A DNA stretch of 13,062 bases from positions 1-13,062 of the forward strand of contig JAHLVW010000038.1 in assembly GCA_019058275.1 (NCBI GenBank). Direction: 5' to 3'. Origin of the DNA: Candidatus Heimdallarchaeota archaeon (lineage in GTDB: Archaea; Asgardarchaeota; Heimdallarchaeia; JABLTI01). Below the pieces are notes generated by a model. That model saw nothing but the letters and a program-made list of their open reading frames with translations, had not been told where the DNA came from and searched no databases. A program made the position numbers and the translations under genes. Shown one piece after another: positions 1-13,062 of this stretch (position 1 is its first letter; every line of letters begins with the position of its first letter).

Positions 1-1259
1 AAGCAAACATTGAAGCAAAAGTAGAACTTACAGGTTCATTCTCCAGAGATACTTGGATCTCGGGAAGCAGGGATATTGATATTTTTGTTATATTACCTTA
101 CAAAAGTGAGTTTACTCCAAATGATATACTGAAGGTAATTAAAAAGGGAATAGATTTCCAATGGATAAAAAAACATGCTAAACATCCTTATTTATTCGCA
201 ATTTCAGATGACATCAAAATTGAGATAGTTCCTTGTTATGAGTTTAAAGTAGGAAGGGAAATTCGAAGTGCTGTAGACCGTTCTCCTCTACATAAGCAAT
301 TTGTTATTGATAATCTTCCAATTGGTGCTATAGATGAAGTGAGATTACTAAAACAATTCATGAGGGGAGTTGGTACTTATGGTGCTGAAATCAAAGTACA
401 TGGATTCTCTGGATACCTAATTGAATTACTAATTATTAACTATAAGGGGCAATTTATCGAAGTACTGAAGAATGCTCAAAAATTACTAAATAATGTTATT
501 ACTTTTCAAGAAAAACTAATTGTGGATGAAAACAAATTTGAGAATGGACCATTAATTGTTGTAGATCCAACTGATAAAAATAGAAATGTAGCTGCAGCAG
601 TTAAAGAACAAACTTTGGCAAATTTTATTGCTGCTGCAAAAAGCTATCTGAAAAATCCTTCAGAAGATTACTTGTTTCCTAAGAAAATAACCATTACAAA
701 AGGCAGATTACAAGAAATAAAAAATAGTGTTTTACATTACTCAGCAATAATTCACAAAGAGTCTGATATCTCTGACGATATTTTGTGGGGACAAATTAGA
801 AAGTTTGAAAAGAGTCTCTTAAATTATCTCAAAAATGAAGGAATAGAACCTATCAATATTGATTCAATGATTTCCAAGGAGGAGATAATGACTATTATTA
901 TTTCACAGAAAGGTACCACACCAGATTATAGATGGAAATTAGGTCCACCAGTTAACAACAACGGTCAGGATGAATTCTTAAAGAAATATAAGGACAATTC
1001 TCGAGTGGTTTTTGGTCCTGCTATTATTAAAAATAGATGGAAAATTCTACTGAAAGAAAAACAAAGAACCATTTATGAAATAGTTAAGAAAGGAATTAGC
1101 GAAAAGATCATTTCCTTGCCATCACATCTGCAAATGGATTTATCATCAATTGAAATTTTAAGCAAAGAGAAATTAATAACAAGAATAATGGATGATAAGG
1201 AAAAAATGACTTATCTTTACAGAATACTAACTGGGAAACCAAATTACTTGCTGAAATAA
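1..1259 (+). CDS. cca: Archaeal class I CCA-adding enzyme (tRNA nucleotidyltransferase), 5' end lies upstream of the window
   Basis: Frame 3 is open from base 3, well upstream of the ORF-track start at 339. It reads ...VELTGSFSRDTWISGSRDIDIFV (GS...DxD nucleotidyltransferase motif), then HPY, EIVPCY, AVDRSPLH, RLLKQFM..GTYGAE..GFSGYLIELL, DPTDKNRNVAAAV and LWGQ, all typical of archaeal CCA enzymes. Confidence 0.95.
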   Translation, partial: ANIEAKVELTGSFSRDTWISGSRDIDIFVILPYKSEFTPNDILKVIKKGIDFQWIKKHAKHPYLFAISDDIKIEIVPCYEFKVGREIRSAVDRSPLHKQFVIDNLPIGAIDEVRLLKQFMRGVGTYGAEIKVHGFSGYLIELLIINYKGQFIEVLKNAQKLLNNVITFQEKLIVDENKFENGPLIVVDPTDKNRNVAAAVKEQTLANFIAAAKSYLKNPSEDYLFPKKITITKGRLQEIKNSVLHYSAIIHKESDISDDILWGQIRKFEKSLLNYLKNEGIEPINIDSMISKEEIMTIIISQKGTTPDYRWKLGPPVNNNGQDEFLKKYKDNSRVVFGPAIIKNRWKILLKEKQRTIYEIVKKGISEKIISLPSHLQMDLSSIEILSKEKLITRIMDDKEKMTYLYRILTGKPNYLLK

Positions 1260-2486
1260 TTATTTGCGACGTTTCTTCCTTTCAATATGGGGGTATTTTG
1301 GCTTTAACATTGATTTGATTCTTTTGTTAGTCCATTTAGTTCGAAGAGCATATTCTACTCCTTTTATGAATTGCTTTACATGGTTTTCCCAAGTTCGTCC
1401 ATCAACCAATTTCTCGCCATTGATTGCTAGCTTCTTACGGAGTTCCTTATCTCGAGCCATGAGTAGAATGCTATCTTTTATCTCATCAGGATTCATTATA
1501 TCTGAAACAAGAATGGTATTTTCCTTATGTTTCACATCTGGGTCGTGCCTATATTCTGAGGTAATAACCGGTAAACGGCAAGACATGGCTTCAAAAACAG
1601 TAAAGCAACTACTTTCGTTAAGCGATGGATTAGTAAAGAAATCAGCAGCAACATAATGACTAGGCAATTCTACATCTGGAACAAATCCAGTGAATATCAT
1701 TCTATCTTTGTTTTTATAGGGATGATTTGCATAATAATCCCATTCTGGTCCTTTACCTACAAATAATCCGTAAAGATTAGGTTCTTCCTCTAAAGCTCGA
1801 TCCATTCCTTCCAACATATTGGCAACATTTTTCTCTTTAGCTAATCTACCAACATAAATTGAAACTATAGCATCACTTGGGATATTGTGTCTTGTGCGAA
1901 TATCAAATTGATTGTTTTTGGGATTAAATCTTGATTTGTCAATAGCAAATGGTGTGTGAAAGATTTTTTCCTCAGAAATGCCAAAATCGATGAGCTTACC
2001 TTTGAACCTTTCTGTAGCATGAAAGAAGACATCAATAAATAACTGGTAGTAGATTTGTGATAGAGCAATCATAGAGACATTATACCATACTTTAGGTGTT
2101 TGTAGGATTTTCCATAAAACAATTCTCTCATCTTGATGGATAAAAATACCAATCTTTTTTCTCAGGATTCTTGCTAGTAAGGCACCGAATACACCTAAGG
2201 TAGCAACAGAATGCACAAAAACAAAATCAGCATTTCTTACTGCTTTTAGTAATCTTTTATCAGGATAAGCAATCCAATAACCTTGAGTGTAAATACGAGT
2301 ACTAGTGCATCGCACAACTTCAAACCCTTCAAAGGGATATTCATAATGCTCAGTACCGATAAACCAAGGACCAACTAGAGTTACTTCATGCCCAGCTTTA
2401 ACTAATTCTGGAATTAAATAATCAAAGTAACGTACGACTCCATCATAAATTGGTTTGTATGAATCGCATACGAAGCAAATTTTCAT
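1260..2486 (-). CDS. Glycosyltransferase family 4 (GT-B fold), copy 1
   Basis: N-terminus MKICFVCDSYKPIYDGV, then VGRLAKEKN, FTGFVPD and an Ex7E motif (NESSCFTVFEAM). SD-like GGAGG upstream. Its stop codon abuts the cca stop with no gap. Confidence 0.92.
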   Translation of the reverse strand: MKICFVCDSYKPIYDGVVRYFDYLIPELVKAGHEVTLVGPWFIGTEHYEYPFEGFEVVRCTSTRIYTQGYWIAYPDKRLLKAVRNADFVFVHSVATLGVFGALLARILRKKIGIFIHQDERIVLWKILQTPKVWYNVSMIALSQIYYQLFIDVFFHATERFKGKLIDFGISEEKIFHTPFAIDKSRFNPKNNQFDIRTRHNIPSDAIVSIYVGRLAKEKNVANMLEGMDRALEEEPNLYGLFVGKGPEWDYYANHPYKNKDRMIFTGFVPDVELPSHYVAADFFTNPSLNESSCFTVFEAMSCRLPVITSEYRHDPDVKHKENTILVSDIMNPDEIKDSILLMARDKELRKKLAINGEKLVDGRTWENHVKQFIKGVEYALRTKWTNKRIKSMLKPKYPHIERKKRRK

Positions 2487-2622
2487 CCCTTATCCTCCAG
2501 GAATAATTATTTTCGACACAATTTAACAATTAACAAATCGTAAACTGCCTTTTTTATAGTTTATCTTACATTCTCAATAATGTTTTTGGAAGAAAGAAAA
2601 AAGCTATTAGAGAATAATTAAA

Positions 2623-3831
2623 TTACAAACCCACTGATTCTTGAGACCTACGTAAAATACGTTTCAATAGTCTCTTTCTTTTTGTTTCAACTTGCAATGT
2701 TTCATTTATCCCTACTAGGAATTTCTCTGCATGGTTTTGCCAGGTACGAGATGCAATCAGTTTCTGACCATTTAATGCAATGGTTTCACGTAATGCTTTA
2801 TCATTAGCTAGACGAAGAATATTCTCTTTAATTTCATGATGATTAAGGACATCGTTAATAAGTAAAGCATTGGTTCCATGAATAATGTCTGGGTCATGGT
2901 CCTTTTCTGCAGTAATTACTGGTACTTGGCAAGTCATAGCTTCGAAAACTGTGAAACAACTGCTTTCGTTTAAAGTAGGAGTTACAAACATATCACAAAC
3001 AGCATAGTGACTTTGGAGTTCTTTTTCAGGTACGAACCCAGTGAAGATAAAACGATCATTATTTTTCCTTGGATGATTAATGAAAAGTTCCTCATTGGGA
3101 CCACCACCAACCATCAATCCGTAAAGATTTGGGTTTTGATCCATAGCATCATCCATAGCTGAGATAATATTATCAACATTTTTTTCAACTGATAAACGTC
3201 CAAGATAACAAGAAATGATGCCTTCTTCTGGAAGATTATAGCGTTTGCGTAAATCAAACTCCGGTTTGGGGTGGAAGGAGTTAGAATTAATGGCAAAAGG
3301 AGTATGATAGATTTTGTCTTCAGGTGCGTCAAACCAAACCAATTTGCGACGAAAACGCTCAGTTGCGTGGAAAAAGACATTGACAATCTTTGTATAGTAT
3401 TTTCGGATAAGCCAAAACAGAAAGCGAACAAAGAATGGCCTGAGTTTAATAATATCTTGAAGGATTACCCGTTCATCGTGGTGGCAAAATAAGCCCACTT
3501 TTTTGCGGAAGAATTTAGCAACTAAACCGCCAACTGTCCCTAAGGGCATCAAAGAATGCAAAACAACAATATCCGACTTTCGTATAGCCCTTGTAAGTCG
3601 CCAGTCTGGAAGGGCAAAAACGTAGGCATTTACTTTAAAGCGAGTAGTAAAAGTTCGAATTATTTTCAAATTTTCTCTTGGGAAAGAAATGTGCTTCTCA
3701 CCTTTAAAGTGGGGGCAGATAATAGACACTTTATGACCTTGTTTAAGTAACTCTGGAATTAAATAATCTAGGTAACGAACAATACCATCGAAGGTAGGAT
3801 GATAGGTGTCAGTTATCATGCAGATTTTCAT
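2623..3831 (-). CDS. Glycosyltransferase family 4 (GT-B fold), copy 2
   Basis: Same motifs as copy 1 (MKICMITDTYHPTFDGI, LGRLSVEKN, NESSCFTVFEAM). Start moved from the TTG at 3876 to the ATG at 3831 by alignment with copy 1 and an upstream AAGGGGA SD-like sequence. Confidence 0.92.
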   Translation of the reverse strand: MKICMITDTYHPTFDGIVRYLDYLIPELLKQGHKVSIICPHFKGEKHISFPRENLKIIRTFTTRFKVNAYVFALPDWRLTRAIRKSDIVVLHSLMPLGTVGGLVAKFFRKKVGLFCHHDERVILQDIIKLRPFFVRFLFWLIRKYYTKIVNVFFHATERFRRKLVWFDAPEDKIYHTPFAINSNSFHPKPEFDLRKRYNLPEEGIISCYLGRLSVEKNVDNIISAMDDAMDQNPNLYGLMVGGGPNEELFINHPRKNNDRFIFTGFVPEKELQSHYAVCDMFVTPTLNESSCFTVFEAMTCQVPVITAEKDHDPDIIHGTNALLINDVLNHHEIKENILRLANDKALRETIALNGQKLIASRTWQNHAEKFLVGINETLQVETKRKRLLKRILRRSQESVGL

Positions 3832-4055
3832 AACATTAATCCCCTTATGCCATAGTTCTAATTCTAACTCAAACAAATACTCAGAACTTTTATTTTATAA
3901 AGCTCTAAATGAACTGACGAAAAAACAAGTATCAATAAAAAGTGTAGAGTTTAAATGATAAAACAGTATATTTTTATATGGAGATTAAGTTCTTCAAAAC
4001 AACAAACCTTAATTTTAACAACGTGAGTTGAGAAAAATAAAGGAGAAAAAATAAC

Positions 4056-4214
4056 ATGGAAAAATACGAATGTACCGTTTGTGGTTATATTTACGATCCT
4101 GACAAGGGTGATCCTGATTCTGGCATAGCTGCTGGAACATCTTTTAAAGATTTACCTGATGATTGGGTATGTCCAATTTGTGGTGCCGCTAAAGGCGATT
4201 TTGAGCCACTCTAA
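4056..4214 (+). CDS. Rubredoxin, 52 aa (not in the ORF track)
   Basis: Manual translation gives [52 protein letters not shown], with two CxxCG iron knuckles. AAGGAG SD at 4040-4045. Confidence 0.97.
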
Positions 4215-4278
4215 TTGATTTCTCTTATCCCACATATTTTGTTTTTTTAACAAATTTTTTCTTTCTTTCAAACTCCAA

Positions 4279-4872
4279 ATGAATAATGTTTTTGAATTGC
4301 TAAAGAAAGATGAAACAATGAAAGGAATTATTGAGAAAGAGGGTGAGATTGAACTTTCAAAAAGCACTGATTATTTTGTTTCATTAGGAGAAGCGATGAT
4401 TTATCAACAGATAAGTTGGAAAGCTGCTAAAACCATTTATGAGAAATATAAGAAACTTTTCCCTAATGAAAGAATATCACCAGAAGAACATATAAAACTA
4501 AATGAGAATGACTTGCAAACTGCAGGTATCTCGAGGCAAAAAAGAACTTATTTAGATAGCCTAGCTGAGAAATTTATTGATAAAACCATCAAACCAGAAA
4601 AATTTGACCAAATGACCGATGAAGAGATTATTAGAGAACTAGTACAAATAAAGGGTATAGGACGTTGGACAGCTCAAATGTTTTTAATTTTCTCACTTGC
4701 TCGTGAAGATGTTTTTGCACCTGATGATTTAGGGTTAAGAAGAGCTATAATGCAAATATATGGATTCAATGAACTCCCTTCTCCTAAAGAGTTAGAACAA
4801 TTCTCTACTCGCTGGCAAACTTACAGATCATATGCTTCTCTCTATCTTTGGAGATTTACGCGTAAACAATAG
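4279..4872 (+). CDS. alkA: DNA-3-methyladenine glycosylase II family (AlkA-like, HhH-GPD)
   Basis: MIYQQISWKAA, GISRQK, the HhH motif LVQIKGIGRWTAQMFLIF, DVFAPDDLGLRRA and the C-terminal W.TYRSYASLYLW. Confidence 0.9.
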   Translation: MNNVFELLKKDETMKGIIEKEGEIELSKSTDYFVSLGEAMIYQQISWKAAKTIYEKYKKLFPNERISPEEHIKLNENDLQTAGISRQKRTYLDSLAEKFIDKTIKPEKFDQMTDEEIIRELVQIKGIGRWTAQMFLIFSLAREDVFAPDDLGLRRAIMQIYGFNELPSPKELEQFSTRWQTYRSYASLYLWRFTRKQ

Positions 4873-4909
4873 AAAATGTTGTTTTCAACGTTATAATATC
4901 ACTATTTGA

Positions 4910-5157
4910 TATCTCGAAGCAAAAAGGAACTTATTTAGACAGCCTTACTAAAAAATTCATTAATAAAACTATTAGACCATAGAAATTTGATTAAATGACC
5001 GATGAAGAGATTATTGCCGAACTAAAGCAAATAAAAAGTAATGTAGTCGGGTTTTTTTATGGACAATTAGGACATGGACTTGCTTTCAATCGGTGCGTTA
5101 GAAAGTAAAGAAGGAGTAAATGCTTCCCTCTACTTTTATAATTTACCCTTGCAATAG
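4910..5157 (+). pseudogene. Decayed second copy of the alkA-like gene
   Basis: 4910-5040 aligns without gaps to 4527-4657 (107/131 identical by hand count). It translates ISKQKGTYLDSLTKKFINKTIRP*KFD*MTDEEIIAELKQIKS, with two in-frame stops. 5120-5157 resembles the gene's 3' end (4832-4872). Confidence 0.85.
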
Positions 5158-5416
5158 TTAAACCATTTGGATTTCGATAAGACTTTTTAGGTAGTATACA
5201 TAGTCATGATAATTTAAAAACTATCTAAAACTAAAAAACAAAAGTAAATGCTTCAGTTGACAATATAATAGCCATCGAATTTCGTAAAAACTGGTTGCTG
5301 AACAGTCTTATCTCTTTTTTTAAAGAGAAAATTAAGTGGTTTTCCAATAAAGATTTATTAGCAATTAGGGCTATATTTTATTAGAGAGTGGTAGGCTAAT
5401 TTGTTTGGTGATCTGT

Positions 5417-6187
5417 ATGAATAGGAAATATCGATTACTGTCAGTTATTGCTATTATTATTGGATTGGTTATACTACCTCAAATTACTTCAATAATCGCT
5501 CCTCATTTGCCAAAAACCGAATGTGAAGGTGATGTAGCATGTATTGTTGATAACGAATTTGAGAAAATGGGCAAACAACCATCGATAGATATTATGTCTT
5601 TTAACAATAAAGTTTCTTCATCTCAAATAGAGCTTTATTTAAATGGCACTCCTATACTTGATCATTCTCATGGATATAGGATAATAATAAACTGGAATGG
5701 TCACCTTAATAGGGGATGGATAGGGAACTGGACTCATATATACTGGGATTTTGTTATACCCCCCTCATCCAATATTACTTTATGTTTTGCAGGAGGAATT
5801 AGTGGTTTTGGTGTGACAAATGGATCATACAATAGGATTTGCAATAGTTCAGGCATCCCCATTTTTACTGAAATGAATAATGATTCTGTAAGTATAGTTG
5901 GTAATTCAATTATCTTTCCTTTTAACCAAACATTGATAACCACATCTAAAAATCCTTACGATATTTTAGTTCTGACTACCTATAATACTACCAGATTGGA
6001 GATTAATGAGGATAATACTACTACGCTCTTAGCTATTACTTGGATGGATTCGATGAAAGACCACTTCATTATCAATTTGTTCACATTGGTAACATTAGAC
6101 AACAAAATTAATTTTGCAGTCTTTATGACCACGTTAGTATTCATAGGTGTTAGCCAAGTAATTTATCTCAAGAGAAGAAGAAAGTGA
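5417..6187 (+). CDS. Hypothetical surface/membrane protein with an N-terminal signal or TM segment and a C-terminal anchor
   Basis: Basic then hydrophobic N-terminus (MNRKYRLLSVIAIIIGLVILP) and a C-terminal hydrophobic helix followed by KRRRK. Nine N-x-S/T sequons. GGTGA at 5407-5411 favours the ATG at 5417 over the TTG at 5405. Confidence 0.75.
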   Translation: MNRKYRLLSVIAIIIGLVILPQITSIIAPHLPKTECEGDVACIVDNEFEKMGKQPSIDIMSFNNKVSSSQIELYLNGTPILDHSHGYRIIINWNGHLNRGWIGNWTHIYWDFVIPPSSNITLCFAGGISGFGVTNGSYNRICNSSGIPIFTEMNNDSVSIVGNSIIFPFNQTLITTSKNPYDILVLTTYNTTRLEINEDNTTTLLAITWMDSMKDHFIINLFTLVTLDNKINFAVFMTTLVFIGVSQVIYLKRRRK

Positions 6188-6216
6188 ACATTAAGAACTA
6201 GTTTTAATTAAGCTTA

Positions 6217-6255
6217 AAATAAAAAAGAAATAAATTTGAGAGTAAAAACTCTCAA
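6217..6255 (-). terminator. Hairpin plus U-rich tract between convergent genes; likely terminator of the EF-2 paralog
   Basis: Perfect 8-bp stem TTGAGAGT (6236-6243) / ACTCTCAA (6248-6255) with a 4-nt loop, 5 nt past the EF-2 stop. On the minus strand it is followed by ATTTATTTCTTTTTTATTTT. Confidence 0.6.
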
Positions 6256-6260
6256 TTTAC

Positions 6261-8480
6261 TTATTGTCTTTTATAGATAAATCTTCCCCAATTTTCTGGG
6301 GTAGGAATTTCTTCTGGTAAACCTTTGCGCTTACGAACATCTAAAATGATTTCAGTTTCAAGGCTTGAAGGTAATGGTTCAAATGCTTTGAATTGATAAC
6401 CCCAAAAGCTTCGACCAGAAGTAGCACTTCGTAACTTGTCTGCAAAATCACCTATAGTTTCAGAAGTTGGTAGAACACCTTTAACTCTAACTTGATCATC
6501 TTCGTCAACTGTTTTTTCTACACGACCTCGGTGCTGACTAATAAGTCCCATAACTGAACCCATGAAATCCTTAGGAGTTTTTATGTCTACAGTTAACATT
6601 GGTTCATAAACATGAGGATCTGCGGTTAGAAATGAGATGTTCAAAGCTGAAGTTGTCATACCTAGAATTTCTGAAAAGCCTGTATGAGCAGGATCTGTGT
6701 GTATTGTAGCATCTGTGATGACAACCTTTAGACCAAGGGTTGGTTCTTTGGCAACAGCTGCAGAGTAAGTGAAGTCTTTAAAGATTTGAATGACATATTG
6801 CTTAATTCGATCCATTCGTTGGACACCAGAGCTAGCATTAATAATCATGTTGTGGCCTTCAATGTCCCAAATTTTTCGTGCGAATTTTGCATCCCAACCG
6901 GCTTTATCATGGAGAATACCTGCACGAACTTTTTCGTTTTGTTCCATTGTTATCTCCTTTGATCTTATAAGAGCGAGAGCTTTATCATCTAAAGGTTCAA
7001 TGTATAATTTCAAACGATTATGACCGTTTGGAGATTTAGTGTGAATTTCCATTCCAGCTCTATTTATCCTTTCACGGTAAACAATGATTGGGTCAAAGAT
7101 ACGGATTTTTACTTGCTCATGAATTCTCTTTGTTAGGATTTCAATTTGCAATGGATCAATACCTGACAGAATATACTTGTTACTTTCTTTATCATGTCTG
7201 AAAGTAGCTGTTGGATCTGCCATAATCCACTTGCTAACAACTTCGCCAAGTTTGGCGATGTCTTGAGGATCAATAGCCTCAATAGCTCGACTAACAACCG
7301 GTTCAGCAGCATAGGAGATCTCTTCAAATCCTTTGGAACTTGATCCAGGTTCTCTGAAAGATTCACCGCTGGGAGCAATGAATCCGTAAACTGCGAATAA
7401 GTTTCCTGCAGGAATTTCATCACAGTCAAGGATATCAGTAATTTCCATAACACCAAGACGTTTAACTGGTACTTTCTTCTTCTGACCAATTAACTCGAGA
7501 TCTTGACCGGCTCTAATTGTTCCAGAGAAAACTCGACCAATTAAAGTTGGACGTTTACTCTTAGGATCGATAAAGATTTTAGTAATCATACCAATAAGAG
7601 GACCATCACGATCACAGTTGACAAGTGATCGTCCTTCTTTGGATTCAAGGTCACCAGACCAGATGTGGGGAATCTTGTACTTCTGTGCATCAGCAGGATT
7701 AGGTAAATGATCAATGACCATACGTAATAAGGCATCTTCAAGATGAAGATTATCACGAAGCCATTGTTTGTCATCTTCAGCATACTTTTCGAAAACAATG
7801 CTGGGGTCCTTGTGACCAGCTGCCTTCAAAATATCAAGAGTGAAAGCCCAACCATCTTTAGCAGAACCTATAGCAACACTGTTCTTAGTAAATGAAACTT
7901 GCCATTTCTTGCCAAATTCAGGAGGAGCGAACTTTTTGATTTGCTCGTTAACCTGGCTGATAATGGTATCAATACGTTCGAAAACTTTGTTAGGAGGAAG
8001 CTTTAATTCACTAATCAAACGATCAACCTTGTTAATGAATAAAACAGGTTTACACAATTCAGAGCCAACAGCTAATTGGATATTGGTAATAGTCTGGGTC
8101 ATTAAACCTTCAAGAGCATCAACAAGAATGATAGCACCATCACTACCACGAAGAGCACGACTAACCTCACCAGTAAAGGAAATGTGACCAGGAGTGTCGT
8201 TAATCTCAAACAAGTAAGTCTTGTCATCACGCTCGTAACTGAGAAGAACAACGCTGGTAAAGATAGTAATACCACGTTCTTGCTCTTCCTCATCAGAGTC
8301 AGTCATAAGCTTAAGACCAGCATCATGATCAGACATAAGACCAGCCCTGCGAAGAAGGTAATCGCTAGTAGTGGTCTTGCCATGATCAATATGAGCAGCA
8401 ATGCTAAAGACACGACGCTGATCCATAGGATGGTTTTTAACCATGTCGCGAATCTCATCAGCGTTTTTAATACGAACCAT
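6261..8480 (-). CDS. Translation elongation factor 2 family GTPase, probably the Asgard-type paralog (aEF-2p)
   Basis: G1 AHIDHGKTT, RGITI, G3 DTPGH, G4 NKVD, KSPNGHNRL and LRSATSGR; about 739 aa from the ATG at 8480 (GTGAG upstream). Divergent GHISF (canonical GHVDF) and diphthamide loop HTDPAHTGFSE (canonical HxDxxHRGxxQ). Not next to S12/S7. Confidence 0.9.
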   Translation of the reverse strand: MVRIKNADEIRDMVKNHPMDQRRVFSIAAHIDHGKTTTSDYLLRRAGLMSDHDAGLKLMTDSDEEEQERGITIFTSVVLLSYERDDKTYLFEINDTPGHISFTGEVSRALRGSDGAIILVDALEGLMTQTITNIQLAVGSELCKPVLFINKVDRLISELKLPPNKVFERIDTIISQVNEQIKKFAPPEFGKKWQVSFTKNSVAIGSAKDGWAFTLDILKAAGHKDPSIVFEKYAEDDKQWLRDNLHLEDALLRMVIDHLPNPADAQKYKIPHIWSGDLESKEGRSLVNCDRDGPLIGMITKIFIDPKSKRPTLIGRVFSGTIRAGQDLELIGQKKKVPVKRLGVMEITDILDCDEIPAGNLFAVYGFIAPSGESFREPGSSSKGFEEISYAAEPVVSRAIEAIDPQDIAKLGEVVSKWIMADPTATFRHDKESNKYILSGIDPLQIEILTKRIHEQVKIRIFDPIIVYRERINRAGMEIHTKSPNGHNRLKLYIEPLDDKALALIRSKEITMEQNEKVRAGILHDKAGWDAKFARKIWDIEGHNMIINASSGVQRMDRIKQYVIQIFKDFTYSAAVAKEPTLGLKVVITDATIHTDPAHTGFSEILGMTTSALNISFLTADPHVYEPMLTVDIKTPKDFMGSVMGLISQHRGRVEKTVDEDDQVRVKGVLPTSETIGDFADKLRSATSGRSFWGYQFKAFEPLPSSLETEIILDVRKRKGLPEEIPTPENWGRFIYKRQ

Positions 8481-8542
8481 GTTTTTACAACTCACTAAAC
8501 TTTTATTCTTTTAATTTTTCGTCTATTTTATTAGACTTTTAT

Positions 8543-9631
8543 TTAGTTATCCCTTCGCAAGTGGTTTTTTTCTGCGATTAGTGGATGGTTTTCATCCTTC
8601 GCAGACCGTTCCTGAAGAATAGCAGTTATTTTTTCTACCCCTTTTTTCGATGGGTTGATGCGTTTCAGCACCAATGACTTAGATAAGAATTTTTCGTTTT
8701 CTTCTTCTTTTTCTTTAGTCGGTAGTGAAACTATCTTTACTCTATTATTCTCGAGTGTTATTTTTCCCTTTTTAAAATCATTGATTAATAGGTTAACTGC
8801 AAGTAGTAGATGCGTTCTCAGTTTGTTGTTTGCATAAGTTATTGTTTCGTAGAATCTCGCGATTGTTTTATTGTAGTATATATAATTGTAGAGTGCATAA
8901 ACTGAGTGTTGTTTTGTCGCTATTTCTTCTGCTACTGCTTTGCAGTCTATCTCTCCGTTTTCATAGTCGTATCTTTTTTCTTCTTTTCTTGGTATCCTTC
9001 TGTTTAGGAATGATGCTAAACCGTCATATTTCCTTATGATTGGTATGAGCCAGTTGTTGTTATTCTGCTCCGATCCATTTTCATGATGTTTCTTGCATGC
9101 TTCTCGAATGAAGCTGTTTGTTATCTCTACTTCGTGGTAGATCTTGCTGCTGTGTTTTTCTGTGTGTACGAAATCATGCAGGAGTAGTGCTTTGATCGCT
9201 GTTTGTAGTGGTTTTGGGTGTTTCCCTAATCCTTTTCTTATTGTTAGTTTCTTTTCTTGAGGAGTCTTTCTTACTGGAGTAATTTCTTGTTGTTCTCTCC
9301 ACTTTATTTTTCCCATTCCGTTTTTTTGATGTGCTCCTAAACCTTCTAGTGATAAGAACCTTTGTAATTTCTCTCTTGCTTGGTTGTTGTTTCCTGGAAA
9401 ATCTACTACCACAAACCCTTGGAAGCATTTTTTGATTGTTGGTGCTTTTCTTACTCCTTTGATGAGTTTTCCATAATATTTTTTTCTTGGATAGGGTAGG
9501 TATCCTTTTTCATTTTCTCGAGGTTCTTTTGTTACGGAAATCTTGCATCCCTTGATATAGAAAAAAGGAGTATTAATGACTATTGGTGTGATTAATTCTC
9601 CTATTAGTCTTGAGCGTTTGTTTTTGGCCAT
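8543..9631 (-). CDS. Cas5-like minimal RAMP domain fused to an HD nuclease-like domain
   Basis: First strand plus ITP motif (LIGELITPIVI) and a glycine-rich loop GLGAHQKNGMGKIKW (about 9311-9343). Then ALLLHD (HD at 9173-9178), a further H, KKHH, IIRKYDGLAS and a late LRTH. The ATG at 9631 has GGAGG upstream and overlaps the upstream RAMP gene by 28 nt. Assignment to the Cas5 group specifically is inference. Confidence 0.7.
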   Translation of the reverse strand: MAKNKRSRLIGELITPIVINTPFFYIKGCKISVTKEPRENEKGYLPYPRKKYYGKLIKGVRKAPTIKKCFQGFVVVDFPGNNNQAREKLQRFLSLEGLGAHQKNGMGKIKWREQQEITPVRKTPQEKKLTIRKGLGKHPKPLQTAIKALLLHDFVHTEKHSSKIYHEVEITNSFIREACKKHHENGSEQNNNNWLIPIIRKYDGLASFLNRRIPRKEEKRYDYENGEIDCKAVAEEIATKQHSVYALYNYIYYNKTIARFYETITYANNKLRTHLLLAVNLLINDFKKGKITLENNRVKIVSLPTKEKEEENEKFLSKSLVLKRINPSKKGVEKITAILQERSAKDENHPLIAEKNHLRRDN

Positions 9632-10407
9632 GCTTTCATCCCTTCCTCCATTTCTTTCCATAGGTTTCGAGTTTTTTCTTCTTCGATTACTTTTCCTTGT
9701 TTGTCAAATTCTCTGCTTCGAACTACTTCTTGGAGTGTTATTTGTTTCAACTGCACTCTTCCTCCTCCATTGTTCACACTAGCCCCTAGTCCTAGTTCTG
9801 GTGCATAGAGTATTGCTTTTAGTAAGAAGCCTAATTCCTCTTGAGTAAGTTCTCCTAGTAATTCTATCTTTATTGTCAGTTCTCCTGAGAAGTATCTCTC
9901 TCCAAAGTCTTGTATGCTGAACTTTGACTTACTCTTTAGTGCGTTTCTTCGTTCTGTAGCTATATGCACTGCCTGGGTGTCTGTTTCCCTCTTTCCTTTG
10001 CTGTTTGCTTCTGAGACAATTATTACTGGTTCAAATTTCAGCTTGGATTGTTTTACTATTGATCCCATTAGCCTGTGCTTGATGCACTCTTTTTCTGGAT
10101 AGCATTTACCGTTAGCATGGAATCCTTCCGGTAGTAGGTTTTCACCTTTTTGGGTTTCCGTTTTATCTGATGTATGACAGATTTCTACTCCTTCTTCTTT
10201 TGCTATTGTCATCATTGCATGATTGATCCAACCACGAATGCCTTTTACTAAGTATCTTTTTCCATTTCCATTGTCTTTCTCTGAGCCATTTCCTAAAAGT
10301 AATAAATTATTTACTTTCCCTCCAACAGCTGGACCATTTCCCGTCTTACTGATGGGTGTTTGGGCGAGAATGACTAGACGTTTGAATTTTCTAGATATTT
10401 CAGTCAT
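9604..10407 (-). CDS. Cas7-group RAMP protein (Csm3-like)
   Basis: RAMP motifs in the canonical order: LVILAQTPIS, KGIRGWINH (cf. slKG.lR), a Cys/His insert ending ECIKHRLMGS (cf. C..C.lFGs), SKLKF, thumb ATERRNAL, ERYFSG and a G-loop GLGASVNNGGGRV (about 9761-9792). ATG at 10407 is preceded by GTGA. Confidence 0.82.
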   Translation of the reverse strand: MTEISRKFKRLVILAQTPISKTGNGPAVGGKVNNLLLLGNGSEKDNGNGKRYLVKGIRGWINHAMMTIAKEEGVEICHTSDKTETQKGENLLPEGFHANGKCYPEKECIKHRLMGSIVKQSKLKFEPVIIVSEANSKGKRETDTQAVHIATERRNALKSKSKFSIQDFGERYFSGELTIKIELLGELTQEELGFLLKAILYAPELGLGASVNNGGGRVQLKQITLQEVVRSREFDKQGKVIEEEKTRNLWKEMEEGMKAWPKTNAQD

Positions 10408-10550
10408 AATAATCACTTATTATATTTATTATTTCTATTAAATATGCTAAAATTAGCAAATATAAACCCCTCGCTAATAGCTTTAATAATACTTTATATA
10501 TTATTTTTACAATACATAGAATAAGAACCAAAATCCTAAGAGGGAAACTT
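10408..10550. promoter_or_regulatory. Divergent promoter region with a palindromic candidate operator
   Basis: TATA-like TTTATATA on + (10493-10500) and TTTATATTT on - (10458-10466), each about 50 nt from its ATG. Perfect inverted repeat TGCTAA-AA-TTAGCA at 10445-10458 and a related GCTA-A-TAGC at 10473-10481. Confidence 0.55.
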
Positions 10551-10715
10551 ATGAAATTTATAGGTAGTTCAAAAGTCACAAGACAAGGGCAAGTATCAAT
10601 ACCAGCGGATATTAGGAGAAAATTAGCTATTTCGATAGGTGATCATATTGTCTTCGTGGAAGACAAAAATGGTCGCATTTTTATAACAAAGGAGATTTCT
10701 CTCCCTCCAGAATGA
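10551..10715 (+). CDS. AbrB/MazE/SpoVT-family DNA-binding protein, 54 aa (not in the ORF track)
   Basis: Manual translation gives MKFIGSSKVTRQGQVSIPADIRRKLAISIGDHIVFVEDKNGRIFITKEISLPPE, matching the swapped-hairpin signature (KV..xGQxxIP..IR..L.I..GD). Confidence 0.92.
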   Translation: MKFIGSSKVTRQGQVSIPADIRRKLAISIGDHIVFVEDKNGRIFITKEISLPPE

Positions 10716-10785
10716 ACACACTAGGTTATTTTGTGTGATGTTTATTATTTGAGATTATTAATTATCAGATGAAGATGAGGATAGT

Positions 10786-12399
10786 ATGACACTTACTTGG
10801 ACTAATGATCCCCAATTATTAGATAAACATCCAATTAACTATAACAATTGGGAAACCGCAAATACACTCATAGAACAGGAAGGACTAAAACGCGTTATTA
10901 ATGAAGACCTTTCTTTCACAAATCTGTATGGTATTATGGTTCGAAAGATTGATTTTGTCCGGAAAAAAAAGAGTGATCGTATCATAGCAAGATTTTCTTT
11001 TCTCGTAATAACTGATGAACAGAAAGAACAGATTCAAGCAAAGATTCTCCTCATTGCTGAAGCTGCTCGAGATTATTTTTATCGATCGATCAATAAGTCA
11101 ATTCTTACTTGGCGAGATGTACTTGCTGATTATCTTGAACGAGGAGCCATTCCTTTCCCACTATTTCGTTGTGCTCAAGCAGTTATCCCAGATTTACAAT
11201 TACCTGTAAGAAATAGCCAAATCTCTTTCACCAGTGCTCGAGGGGAAGCATTCACTTTTCCGCTTTGCATAACGAAACCTTTAGCTTACCTTTGTGGTGT
11301 CTGCAACGGTGATGGTAATCTTCGGAACTACTGGGTAATTATTGTTGATGAAACAAAAAAACACATTATAAACTTGTCAAATATGCTTGGTGATTTATTT
11401 GGTAAAAAAGGACATATAATGCAAGATAAAGGAGCTTGGGTAGTAAAGCTAAATCTTTTATGGACTGCCAGGTTGTTTAATTTCATTACCGATCAAACAA
11501 TCAATGCTCCAAAGTATGATTCCTTAAGAGAACCATTGCTATTTCAACAACTAGGAGCTCCCTACAGAAACTTATACTGGCGAGGAGTTTTTGACTCGGA
11601 TGGGTCATTTAAAAACCAATTAACTTTTTGCTCTATTAGTGCACATTTATGTGAAGATTTTCAGAGCTTTCTTACAGATGTATCTATCACTAATAAATTA
11701 ATAGAACAAAAAATTGGTGGTTACCAAGTTAAGATTCCAGCCAGAGAAAAGCTAAAATTTGCACAAGAAATAGGTTCATTACACAGTAAGAAAATAGTGG
11801 ATTTCATTGCTTTTTTAGAGAAATCTCTTCCTTCAATTCAATTTCAAGGATTTAATAATCAAAATCTGACTTCTACTGGTTTCTTTAATTTTCATTTACT
11901 GCCAACAATGTCTGTGTTAGGATTGGAACAGTTTTTTAAAAATGCACAACCAACTTTACAAGAATTGCTTTCCACTAAAGAAATACGTCGTTACACAAAT
12001 GGTAAAGGAATTACTATTAGAAAATTAGCTTCTTTATTATCGTCCCAAAAAACTGATTTAATGGAGTTTTTAAATAATTTTCATGAAAAACTATTCTTCC
12101 AATCTTCTATCTCATCAAAAATTAAACTTTATTTGAAGCCAACTAATGAATTTGCAAAAACCTTGAAGTTTATAGTTCCAACCACAAGAGGTGCAACACT
12201 ATATGGAGAAACCCAAGTCATAACTATTATAATTGAAAAGCAATTTTCCATATCAATTCAAAATAACAAAATCCAAAATAAGTTACTAAGTAAATATTTC
12301 CGAACTTTTTGTGTTTATGCTCCATCGGAAAAGGAACTTGAAAATAAAGACGAATTCATCTTATCTTGGAAAAAAGACATAATTTCTCCAGAAAATTAG
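10786..12399 (+). CDS. Free-standing double-motif LAGLIDADG endonuclease-like protein with N- and C-terminal extensions
   Basis: Two LAGLIDADG-type helices: LAYLCGVCNGDG (11281-11316) and YWRGVFDSDG (11575-11604), about 100 aa apart. It has its own start with GAGG upstream, and no intein splice termini are visible. Confidence 0.8.
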   Translation: MTLTWTNDPQLLDKHPINYNNWETANTLIEQEGLKRVINEDLSFTNLYGIMVRKIDFVRKKKSDRIIARFSFLVITDEQKEQIQAKILLIAEAARDYFYRSINKSILTWRDVLADYLERGAIPFPLFRCAQAVIPDLQLPVRNSQISFTSARGEAFTFPLCITKPLAYLCGVCNGDGNLRNYWVIIVDETKKHIINLSNMLGDLFGKKGHIMQDKGAWVVKLNLLWTARLFNFITDQTINAPKYDSLREPLLFQQLGAPYRNLYWRGVFDSDGSFKNQLTFCSISAHLCEDFQSFLTDVSITNKLIEQKIGGYQVKIPAREKLKFAQEIGSLHSKKIVDFIAFLEKSLPSIQFQGFNNQNLTSTGFFNFHLLPTMSVLGLEQFFKNAQPTLQELLSTKEIRRYTNGKGITIRKLASLLSSQKTDLMEFLNNFHEKLFFQSSISSKIKLYLKPTNEFAKTLKFIVPTTRGATLYGETQVITIIIEKQFSISIQNNKIQNKLLSKYFRTFCVYAPSEKELENKDEFILSWKKDIISPEN

Positions 12400-12699
12400 A
12401 AATACCAGAGCATAAAAAAAATAAGTCTATCAGAGGGGACTGTTCGAAGATTTTAGCAGTGAGAAACAAGTCTAACAGTTGTTTGGGTTTGATATATAGT
12501 TGTTTTGCTGAACTGGGCTTTAGGAATCGTTCTTTCCTTGAAAGAGGTTATCTCCTTCCTTATTCCAGTGTTCTTTTTAACCTTCGTTTTTCCTCTTGTT
12601 CGTTTTTTTGTGATTTGGTTCTTTTTCGTTCTTTTTCATCCGATTTTTTGTGATAGTATTTTGCTTTCTTGCTTAATTTTCTCCCCATTTTAAGCTCTT

Positions 12700-12944
12700 T
12701 TTTGTTCTAAAGGTTGTCGAGTGTTGGTACGTACTATTTAAAGTCTTTCCTTGACATGAGACCCGCCAGCTTTGAGTTGAAAAGAAACCTTCTCCTACCT
12801 TCTTTTTGTTATTCTTTCTTCAAAATCTGTCGAGTCTTTTTAAAGGGTGTACCACTTTGGGTACCCGACAAGATGGGTCATCGAAATCTTTTTCTAGATC
12901 CAGGAGAATAGCTTTTTCACCTCTTAGGCGCTTCTGGAGCGTCC
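12700..12944 (+). promoter_or_regulatory. Putative CRISPR leader / promoter region
   Basis: No convincing ORF. TATA-like TTTAAA elements near 12737-12742 and 12837-12844, each downstream of a TGTCGAGT 8-mer (12715-12722, 12828-12835). It adjoins the intact repeat. Boundaries are approximate. Confidence 0.4.
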
Positions 12945-13058
12945 GTTGCAAAAGTAAAAGCTCAATTATGAGTATTGAAATCCAGGTACATGGACTCCAG
13001 GAGTTTTAGAAGCTACTGAAGGTTGCAAAATAAAAAGCTCAATAATATGTAGTGATAG
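12945..13058 (+). CRISPR. CRISPR-like mini-array: 37-nt repeat, 40-nt spacer, degenerate 37-nt repeat
   Basis: R1 (12945-12981) GTTGCAAAAGTAAAAGCTCAATTATGAGTATTGAAAT; spacer 12982-13021; R2 (13022-13058) GTTGCAAAATAAAAAGCTCAATAATATGTAGTGATAG. The repeats are 29/37 identical without gaps. R1 has the GTT...ATTGAAAN ends of class 1 repeats and a GCTCA/TGAGT hairpin just before the last 8 nt. The window ends 4 nt after R2. Confidence 0.72.
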
Positions 13059-13062
13059 GAGG

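Follow-up and report, generated by a model that had tools for sequence, protein, structure and literature searches.

A 13,062-nt contig from a metagenome-assembled archaeon ends in two imperfect 37-nt repeats around a single spacer, raising the question of whether this is a self-contained mini-array with a task of its own or the part of an ordinary CRISPR array that the assembly happens to show. An earlier note on this DNA had favoured the former, proposing a single crRNA that serves in competition between elements, in homing or as a CreA-like regulatory RNA. Our analysis points the other way: the two repeats (R1 and R2) are very probably the leader-proximal start of an ordinary CRISPR array that belongs to the host's second type I (I-B-like) system.

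The repeat pair and its contig

The stretch analysed here (the window) is the entire contig C25, positions 1-13062, of the genome under study (G000), an AT-rich archaeal metagenome-assembled genome from sediment (118 contigs, 4.12 Mb, completeness 92.8%, contamination 6.8%, GC 32%). Because the window is a whole contig, the R1/R2 feature lies at an assembly break; the contig ends 4 nt past R2, the sequence stops after R2 because the contig stops there, and whatever lies beyond is unreadable. The AGGAGG that the earlier note took for a possible ribosome-binding site of a gene just outside therefore leads into an assembly break. The last 41 nt have no overlap with any other contig of the assembly, and an exact-pattern scan for R2 plus tail came up empty in metagenome contigs and species-representative genomes.

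The contig encodes an archaeal CCA-adding enzyme, two glycosyltransferases, an HhH-GPD glycosylase, EF-2, two RAMP-like proteins and one LAGLIDADG-like protein, and no cas gene was found in its 13 kb. The flanks of the array are chromosomal housekeeping genes (CCA-adding enzyme, EF-2 and glycosyltransferases), and no integrase, terminal repeat or other mobile-element hallmark was seen at the locus. Look-alikes of the EF-2 are both archaeal and eukaryotic, which is compatible with an Asgard archaeon and no proof of one, and the upstream 537-aa ORF, looked up by exact protein sequence, turned up in no other assembly. The features of the array region are as follows.

12690-12944, plus strand: CRISPR leader of ~255 nt with two similar modules, recognized by alignment with other loci
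12715-12768, plus strand: leader module 1, with TGTCGAGT at 12715-12722, TTTAAA at 12737-12742 and ACCCGCCA at 12761-12768
12828-12870, plus strand: leader module 2, with TGTCGAGT at 12828-12835, TTTAAA at 12839-12844 and ACCCGACA at 12863-12870
12945-12981, plus strand: R1, an intact 37-nt repeat, GTTGCAAAAGTAAAAGCTCAATTATGAGTATTGAAAT; contig C4 has four further copies of precisely this variant
12960-12973, plus strand: repeat hairpin of R1 in its lowest-energy fold, stem 12960-12964/12969-12973, loop ATTA
12974-12981, plus strand: ATTGAAAT, the predicted 8-nt crRNA 5' handle, directly after the R1 stem
12982-13021, plus strand: 40-nt spacer, of a length that fits the repeat family (periods of 75-78 on C4)
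13022-13058, plus strand: R2, a decayed repeat whose stem and handle are gone
13059-13062, no strand assigned: GAGG, the last 4 nt of the contig, forming AGGAGG with 13057-13058

R1 and R2 start 77 nt apart and are identical at 29 of 37 positions, with 16/18 in the 5' 18 nt and 13/19 in the 3' 19 nt (20/22 if the 5' part is extended to 22 nt). When we recorded the best identity to R1 at offsets of 68-84 for 20,000 random genome positions, the highest value was 24/37, excepting one draw that fell on a real array; the resemblance between R1 and R2 is far beyond chance. The R1 hairpin comprises 5 bp (G-U, C-G, U-A, C-G and A-U, one of them a G-U pair) around a 4-nt loop, and R2 has a fold energy of -0.2 kcal/mol, which amounts to no fold. 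What the earlier note had read from the letters is confirmed in the sequence, namely the repeats, the 5-bp stem with its G-U pair, the 8-nt ATTGAAAT and the AGGAGG at 13057-13062, and alignment and folding likewise bear out its statement that R2 lost its stem and handle and kept 20/22 at the 5' end. Its expectation that standard finders would miss the pair also held, in that Tandem Repeats Finder gave no report of R1/R2; Rfam matched no family, CRISPR-DR included, on 12300-13062 at E up to 1. Overall, the locus has the makeup of a CRISPR array, with 37-nt direct repeats and a unique 40-nt spacer of similar length. R1 looks like a genuine repeat that is fit for processing, and a cut 8 nt from its 3' end is predicted by analogy with known Cas6 enzymes of type I and type III systems.

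The spacer did not lead to a target. Its best match in its own genome was 14 nt, which is chance level and leaves no partial self-target, and in the 11 genomes of the family only repeat parts were matched. Viral contigs (searched with two sub-patterns) and JGI metagenome contigs (exact pattern) returned nothing, and phage records gave Klebsiella and Clostridioides phage matches at E 0.05 or worse, which we took as chance. The missing protospacer is weak evidence against a spacer that targets a competing element.

Repeat family, leader and cas genes

The earlier note had suggested searching the genome for cognate arrays, and this search was productive: the same 37-nt repeat occurs across G000 and its genus, in arrays of up to 14 or more repeats. 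Within G000, the exact R1 variant is confined to C25 and the four copies on C4. Family members were found as two arrays on C4; as an array running off the contig start (C42a) plus a leader with a single 31-nt repeat (C42b) on C42; as a leader with a single repeat on C39; as a leader with two intact repeats and one decayed repeat on C76; as a leader followed by an array that runs off C91; and as a single repeat on C104. Outside G000, the family is present in seven further genomes of the same genus and in one of a sister genus, with 14 repeats found in G010, 16 in G007 (an array of 14 and a small one of 2) and 8 in G004; G006 has several arrays of its own. The two arrays on C4 (3-269 and 2142-2540) flank a cassette of three unnamed genes that matched no Pfam family. 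The first of these arrays, which opens the contig, is built from the exact R1 variant; among the repeats of the second, nearly every one is different, and all except the terminal one keep GAGTATTGAAAT.

Alignment of the repeats, comprising 16 variants, revealed that positions 26-34 (GAGTATTGA) are invariant in 16/16 and that positions 35-37 are nearly so. Of the stem pairs, three never vary and a fourth (U-A) fails to pair in one variant; at the loop-closing position, 8/16 have A-U, 3/16 have G-C and 5/16 have no pair, such that 92.5% of stem cells pair, versus at most 41% when the partners are slid. The hairpin and 8-nt handle are therefore kept with a compensatory change at one pair (A-U to G-C), although the three G-C sequences are related and the covariation probably reflects one event. 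We regard this as modest covariation support for a repeat hairpin.

The sequence upstream of R1 is a conserved, AT-rich leader that abuts the first repeat and, at other loci, lies on the adaptation-gene side. It aligns over ~260 nt at five loci (C39, C76, C91, G004:C45 and G010:C15), with only the proximal 100 nt aligning at C42b, and all aligned leaders end at the first repeat; at C25, a conserved junction block, CTAG..GCGCTTCTGGAGCGTCC, abuts R1. Copies of the leader are ~70-77% identical to one another. On C76, G004:C45 and G010:C15 the order is cas1-cas2-cas4-leader-array, with a DUF2797 gene ahead of the cas genes and the leader directly after them, and this placement beside adaptation genes fixes the orientation of the C25 array, which is on the plus strand with R1 first. 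Each leader module contains an inverted repeat, with consensus TGTCGGGT and ACCCGACA, around a TTTAAA box, and these boxes are probably archaeal TATA boxes. The inverted repeats flanking the boxes (12715-12768 and 12828-12870) are kept in all full-length leader copies and look like paired, putative protein-binding sites around promoters.

As the earlier note had supposed, Cas6 is encoded elsewhere in the genome, and in fact two cas6 genes are present, on C26 and C74. C26 (7497-16956) carries a complete type I-B operon, cas6-cas8b-cas7-cas5-cas3-cas4-cas1-cas2, followed by an array with at least 11 copies of a 30-nt repeat that runs off the contig. The last 10 nt of this repeat, GTATTGAAAT, are the same as in the 37-nt family, and it thus has the same ATTGAAAT end. 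On C76, cas1, cas2 and cas4 precede a leader and array of the 37-nt family. In G010, a second type I operon is arranged back to back with a 37-nt array and its leader; it is composed of three unnamed genes, cas7 (Csh2-like), cas5b, cas3, an unnamed gene and cas6; no model matched a large subunit of this operon type. The ortholog of the G010 Cas6 in G000 is encoded at C74:42574-43365 (64% identity; 64.6 bits versus PF10040), near a contig end where the operon runs off. Together, the C74 cas6, the cas1, cas2 and cas4 of C76 and the C26 operon provide cognate cas genes, cas6 among them. A cas7, cas5, cas8 and cas3 set to match the 37-nt family was not found in the 92.8%-complete bin, which yielded only the I-B set of C26. 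A DUF2797 gene lies directly upstream of cas1-cas2-cas4 in both genomes (G000:C76 2418-3293 and G010:C15 2826-3788; 54% identity) and may be accessory to the adaptation module.

From these elements a conventional route to a crRNA can be proposed. The conserved leader would supply the transcription start, probably ~25 nt beyond its second TTTAAA box and ~75 nt upstream of R1. Cas6 would bind at the R1 hairpin and cut 8 nt from the 3' end of R1, giving a predicted crRNA that begins at 12974 with ATTGAAAT, continues through the 40-nt spacer and takes its 3' side from the conserved 5' part of R2. The likeliest enzyme would be the Cas6 of C74, being orthologous to the Cas6 whose gene adjoins arrays of this kind in a sister species; the Cas6 or Cascade of the C26 I-B system may also use these crRNAs, because both repeat types share the handle.

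What counts against an ordinary array is that no cas gene lies in the window, that effector genes of the family were not found in the bin, that the contig tail has no independent confirmation in four related sequencing runs and that the spacer has no known target.

Array length and variation between populations

Decay of R2 follows a pattern seen elsewhere in the family. Terminal repeats that keep their 5' half and are decayed in their 3' half occur at C42a (18/18 and 11/19) and C76 (17/18 and 11/19), and also at G006:C68, and no such decay was found in internal repeats of the long arrays examined. R2 thus decays like the three visible terminal repeats, which favours a true array of one spacer. 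A degenerate terminal repeat is a general feature of CRISPR arrays, and R2 resembles such repeats in keeping its 5' half, which supplies the 3' tail of the last crRNA, and in lacking the hairpin and handle, which only a further spacer would require; unlike the usual case, R2 would follow the very first spacer, and a contig end adjoins it.

Other observations point to a continuation on C4. This contig starts with 'AT' followed by the exact R1 variant, that is, in the middle of an array with the same orientation, and its positions 436-2027 are collinear, at 67% identity, with G010 genes that follow the orthologous locus 740 nt downstream; the syntenic gene is single-copy in G000 and present in two copies in G010. 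Given the shared exact repeat variant, the orientation and the synteny with G010, C4 is probably the downstream neighbour of C25. The visible unit may therefore be a worn-down array of one spacer, or the array may continue beyond the contig, probably into C4. We put the first at about an even chance and a longer or compound array somewhat below it, leaving a small share for something else.

We also considered C24 as the continuation and dropped it, since its start matches a fossil trailer at C42b and in G007 and the contig looks like a C42 paralogue or a copy from a second strain. The same ~110-nt trailer is found at G000:C42 2013-2260, G000:C24 1-100 and G007:C127 4750-4930, that is, in two species and on a third contig, where it follows a leader with a single repeat (in G007, a very small array). 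Its sequence, GGATACTTGATGATAGG...TGCATTACTAAATGCACC..., has a palindromic motif at the end, TTCTTCTAAAT..CAGAAGAATTACTTT, and it appears to be the fossil end of an array, retained across species.

Population data bear on both the reality of the contig tail and the behaviour of the locus. Five DNA sequencing runs are on record for this stretch, none of them RNA. Over 12400-12845, the window is matched at 100% identity by Logan contigs from four runs of a single sediment study; words of 12855-12944 and 12982-13062 are absent from these contigs, although Logan contigs drop rare variants, which makes absence there weak evidence. Logan coverage of the window is missing at 12860-12944 and 12998-13062, which neither confirms nor contradicts the tail. 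In two runs the dominant contig (depth ~140) joins 12845 directly to the repeat, such that 12846-12944 (99 nt) are missing and the first repeat comes right after the second TTTAAA box; beyond the repeat it contains a different spacer and then at least 30 nt of another repeat. The lengths of its pieces (316 + 37 + 39 + 30) add up exactly to 422, and the two sides have a single letter in common at the joint, which speaks clearly against a k-mer artifact there, although Logan contigs are built with 31-nt words, shorter than the repeat, and a path through the repeat may be chimeric. Taken at face value, close strains hold different spacers behind the same leader. A different first spacer fits the turnover of a defence array, not a conserved regulatory RNA, and as the spacers behind the C25 leader differ between close populations, the locus could be used as a strain marker or, given viromes from the same sediment, as an aid in linking viruses to hosts.

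The same data allow a reading in which the contig tip (12846-13062, ~200 nt) was assembled from a rare or chimeric haplotype, such that R1-spacer-R2 would not be representative of the main genome. This would account for the words missing from the four related runs, for the dominant form that joins 12845 to the repeat and goes on to another spacer, and for the end of C25 only 217 nt past the branch point. We nevertheless consider it very unlikely. The 99 nt missing from the variant are kept in all other leader copies, making the window form look ancestral and real, and at ~70-77% identity the leader copies are too different for a mis-join. The eight differences in R2 are no sequencing errors and follow the terminal-repeat pattern of the family, and the loss of rare variants from Logan contigs weakens the argument from absence.

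Known systems and other explanations

The start of an ordinary array, our preferred reading, has its closest counterpart in the canonical archaeal type I-B arrays processed by Cas6b, with Haloferax volcanii, Methanococcus maripaludis and Clostridium thermocellum as examples of the system. The resemblance includes weakly structured repeats (30 or 37 nt) whose end, ATTGAAA plus one base, becomes an 8-nt 5' handle, an AT-rich conserved leader, the presence in G000 of Cas6, Cas8b, Cas7, Cas5, Cas3, Cas4, Cas1 and Cas2, and a related Cas7/Cas5b/Cas3/Cas6 operon beside the 37-nt family in G010. C25 differs from these arrays in having no adjacent cas gene, one visible spacer and no Rfam CRISPR-DR match, and the G010-type operon differs in that its large subunit matched no model. 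Methanocaldococcus jannaschii, in which long-repeat/short-repeat units are dispersed in one genome, offers a second parallel: conserved leader copies are likewise spread across G000 and followed by few or single repeats (C25, C39, C42b, C76 and C91). The repeat and leader sequences are unlike those of M. jannaschii, and the leader copies of G000 have diverged to ~70-77% identity.

A self-contained mini-array of one spacer, with a non-defence or element-borne job such as a CreA-like RNA or a weapon or homing guide of a mobile element, is what the earlier note had proposed, and on the present evidence it is very improbable. It fits the single visible spacer and the decayed R2, the LAGLIDADG-like gene upstream, and the absence of the leader-array module from the orthologous locus in four related species, which implies that the module was gained or lost here. 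The mini-arrays of SPV1 and SPV2 (Saccharolobus) and the CreTA modules share with C25 one or two spacers, imperfect repeats, the lack of adjacent cas genes and the need for a host Cas6 and effector. Unlike them, the C25 unit has a full host-type leader, of the type that adjoins cas1-cas2-cas4 elsewhere, and sits among chromosomal genes (CCA-adding enzyme, EF-2 and glycosyltransferases), not on a virus, plasmid or mobile element. Its spacer has no detectable target, matches its own genome over at most 14 nt and is replaced by a different first spacer on contigs that are identical upstream. CreTA modules, which are regulatory RNAs of type I systems, sit inside cas loci and have a pseudo-spacer partly complementary to the promoter of a nearby toxin gene; C25 has no adjoining cas operon, and the 14-nt self-match of its spacer is at chance level. 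The special roles envisaged by the earlier note (competition, homing and CreA-like regulation) are not supported, given the standard leader, the housekeeping surroundings, the lack of a self-target and the changed first spacer in contigs that are identical upstream.

Beyond annotation, the assignment of the locus to an ordinary array has little significance. What it adds to the record, for one genus of sediment archaea, is a 37-nt repeat family, the conserved two-module leader that belongs to it, a second type I system and numerous loci with short arrays or a single repeat, and it illustrates that array ends at contig breaks can resemble 'mini-arrays'.

Another conceivable role for the array is to supply guide RNA to the neighbouring ARAMP-like RAMP pair, which is otherwise 'array-less' and is encoded on the minus strand at 8543-10416 by two overlapping genes (372 and 270 aa). 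Neither gene matched a Pfam family; the pair is 32-67% identical to six cassettes of G000, on C89, C88, C86, C82, C105 and C11, two of which pass PF03787. We had considered the RAMP matches on C105 and C11 as type III effectors and rejected them, because neither has a cas operon around it. A distance of 2.5 kb separates the array from the RAMP pair, yet the array is not a conserved neighbour: in four orthologous RAMP/LAGLIDADG/T-rich loci (G004, G007, G010 and G008) the T-rich element is followed by neither leader nor repeat, none of the six other RAMP cassettes of G000 has a family repeat or leader nearby, and the leader and repeat are those of the type I system. Across the loci compared, the leader-array module is lineage-specific at the C25 site and its association with the RAMP genes is not conserved, which leaves a guide function for the pair extremely unlikely. 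Equally doubtful is a combined reading, in which leader, one spacer and decayed repeat would make up a complete minimal array, placed beside the RAMP cassette in this lineage and now serving as its guide source; if true, the minimal array would be the first natural guide source for array-less, ARAMP-like CRISPR derivatives.

The T-rich element itself measures ~235 nt (12424-12661), lies just downstream of the LAGLIDADG-like gene and outside the CRISPR leader, and contains two copies of CCGATTTTTTGTGAT. A second copy of the element was found at G000:C71:3039-3268 (88%), and it occupies the same position in the RAMP/LAGLIDADG loci of G004 (92%), G007, G010 and G008.
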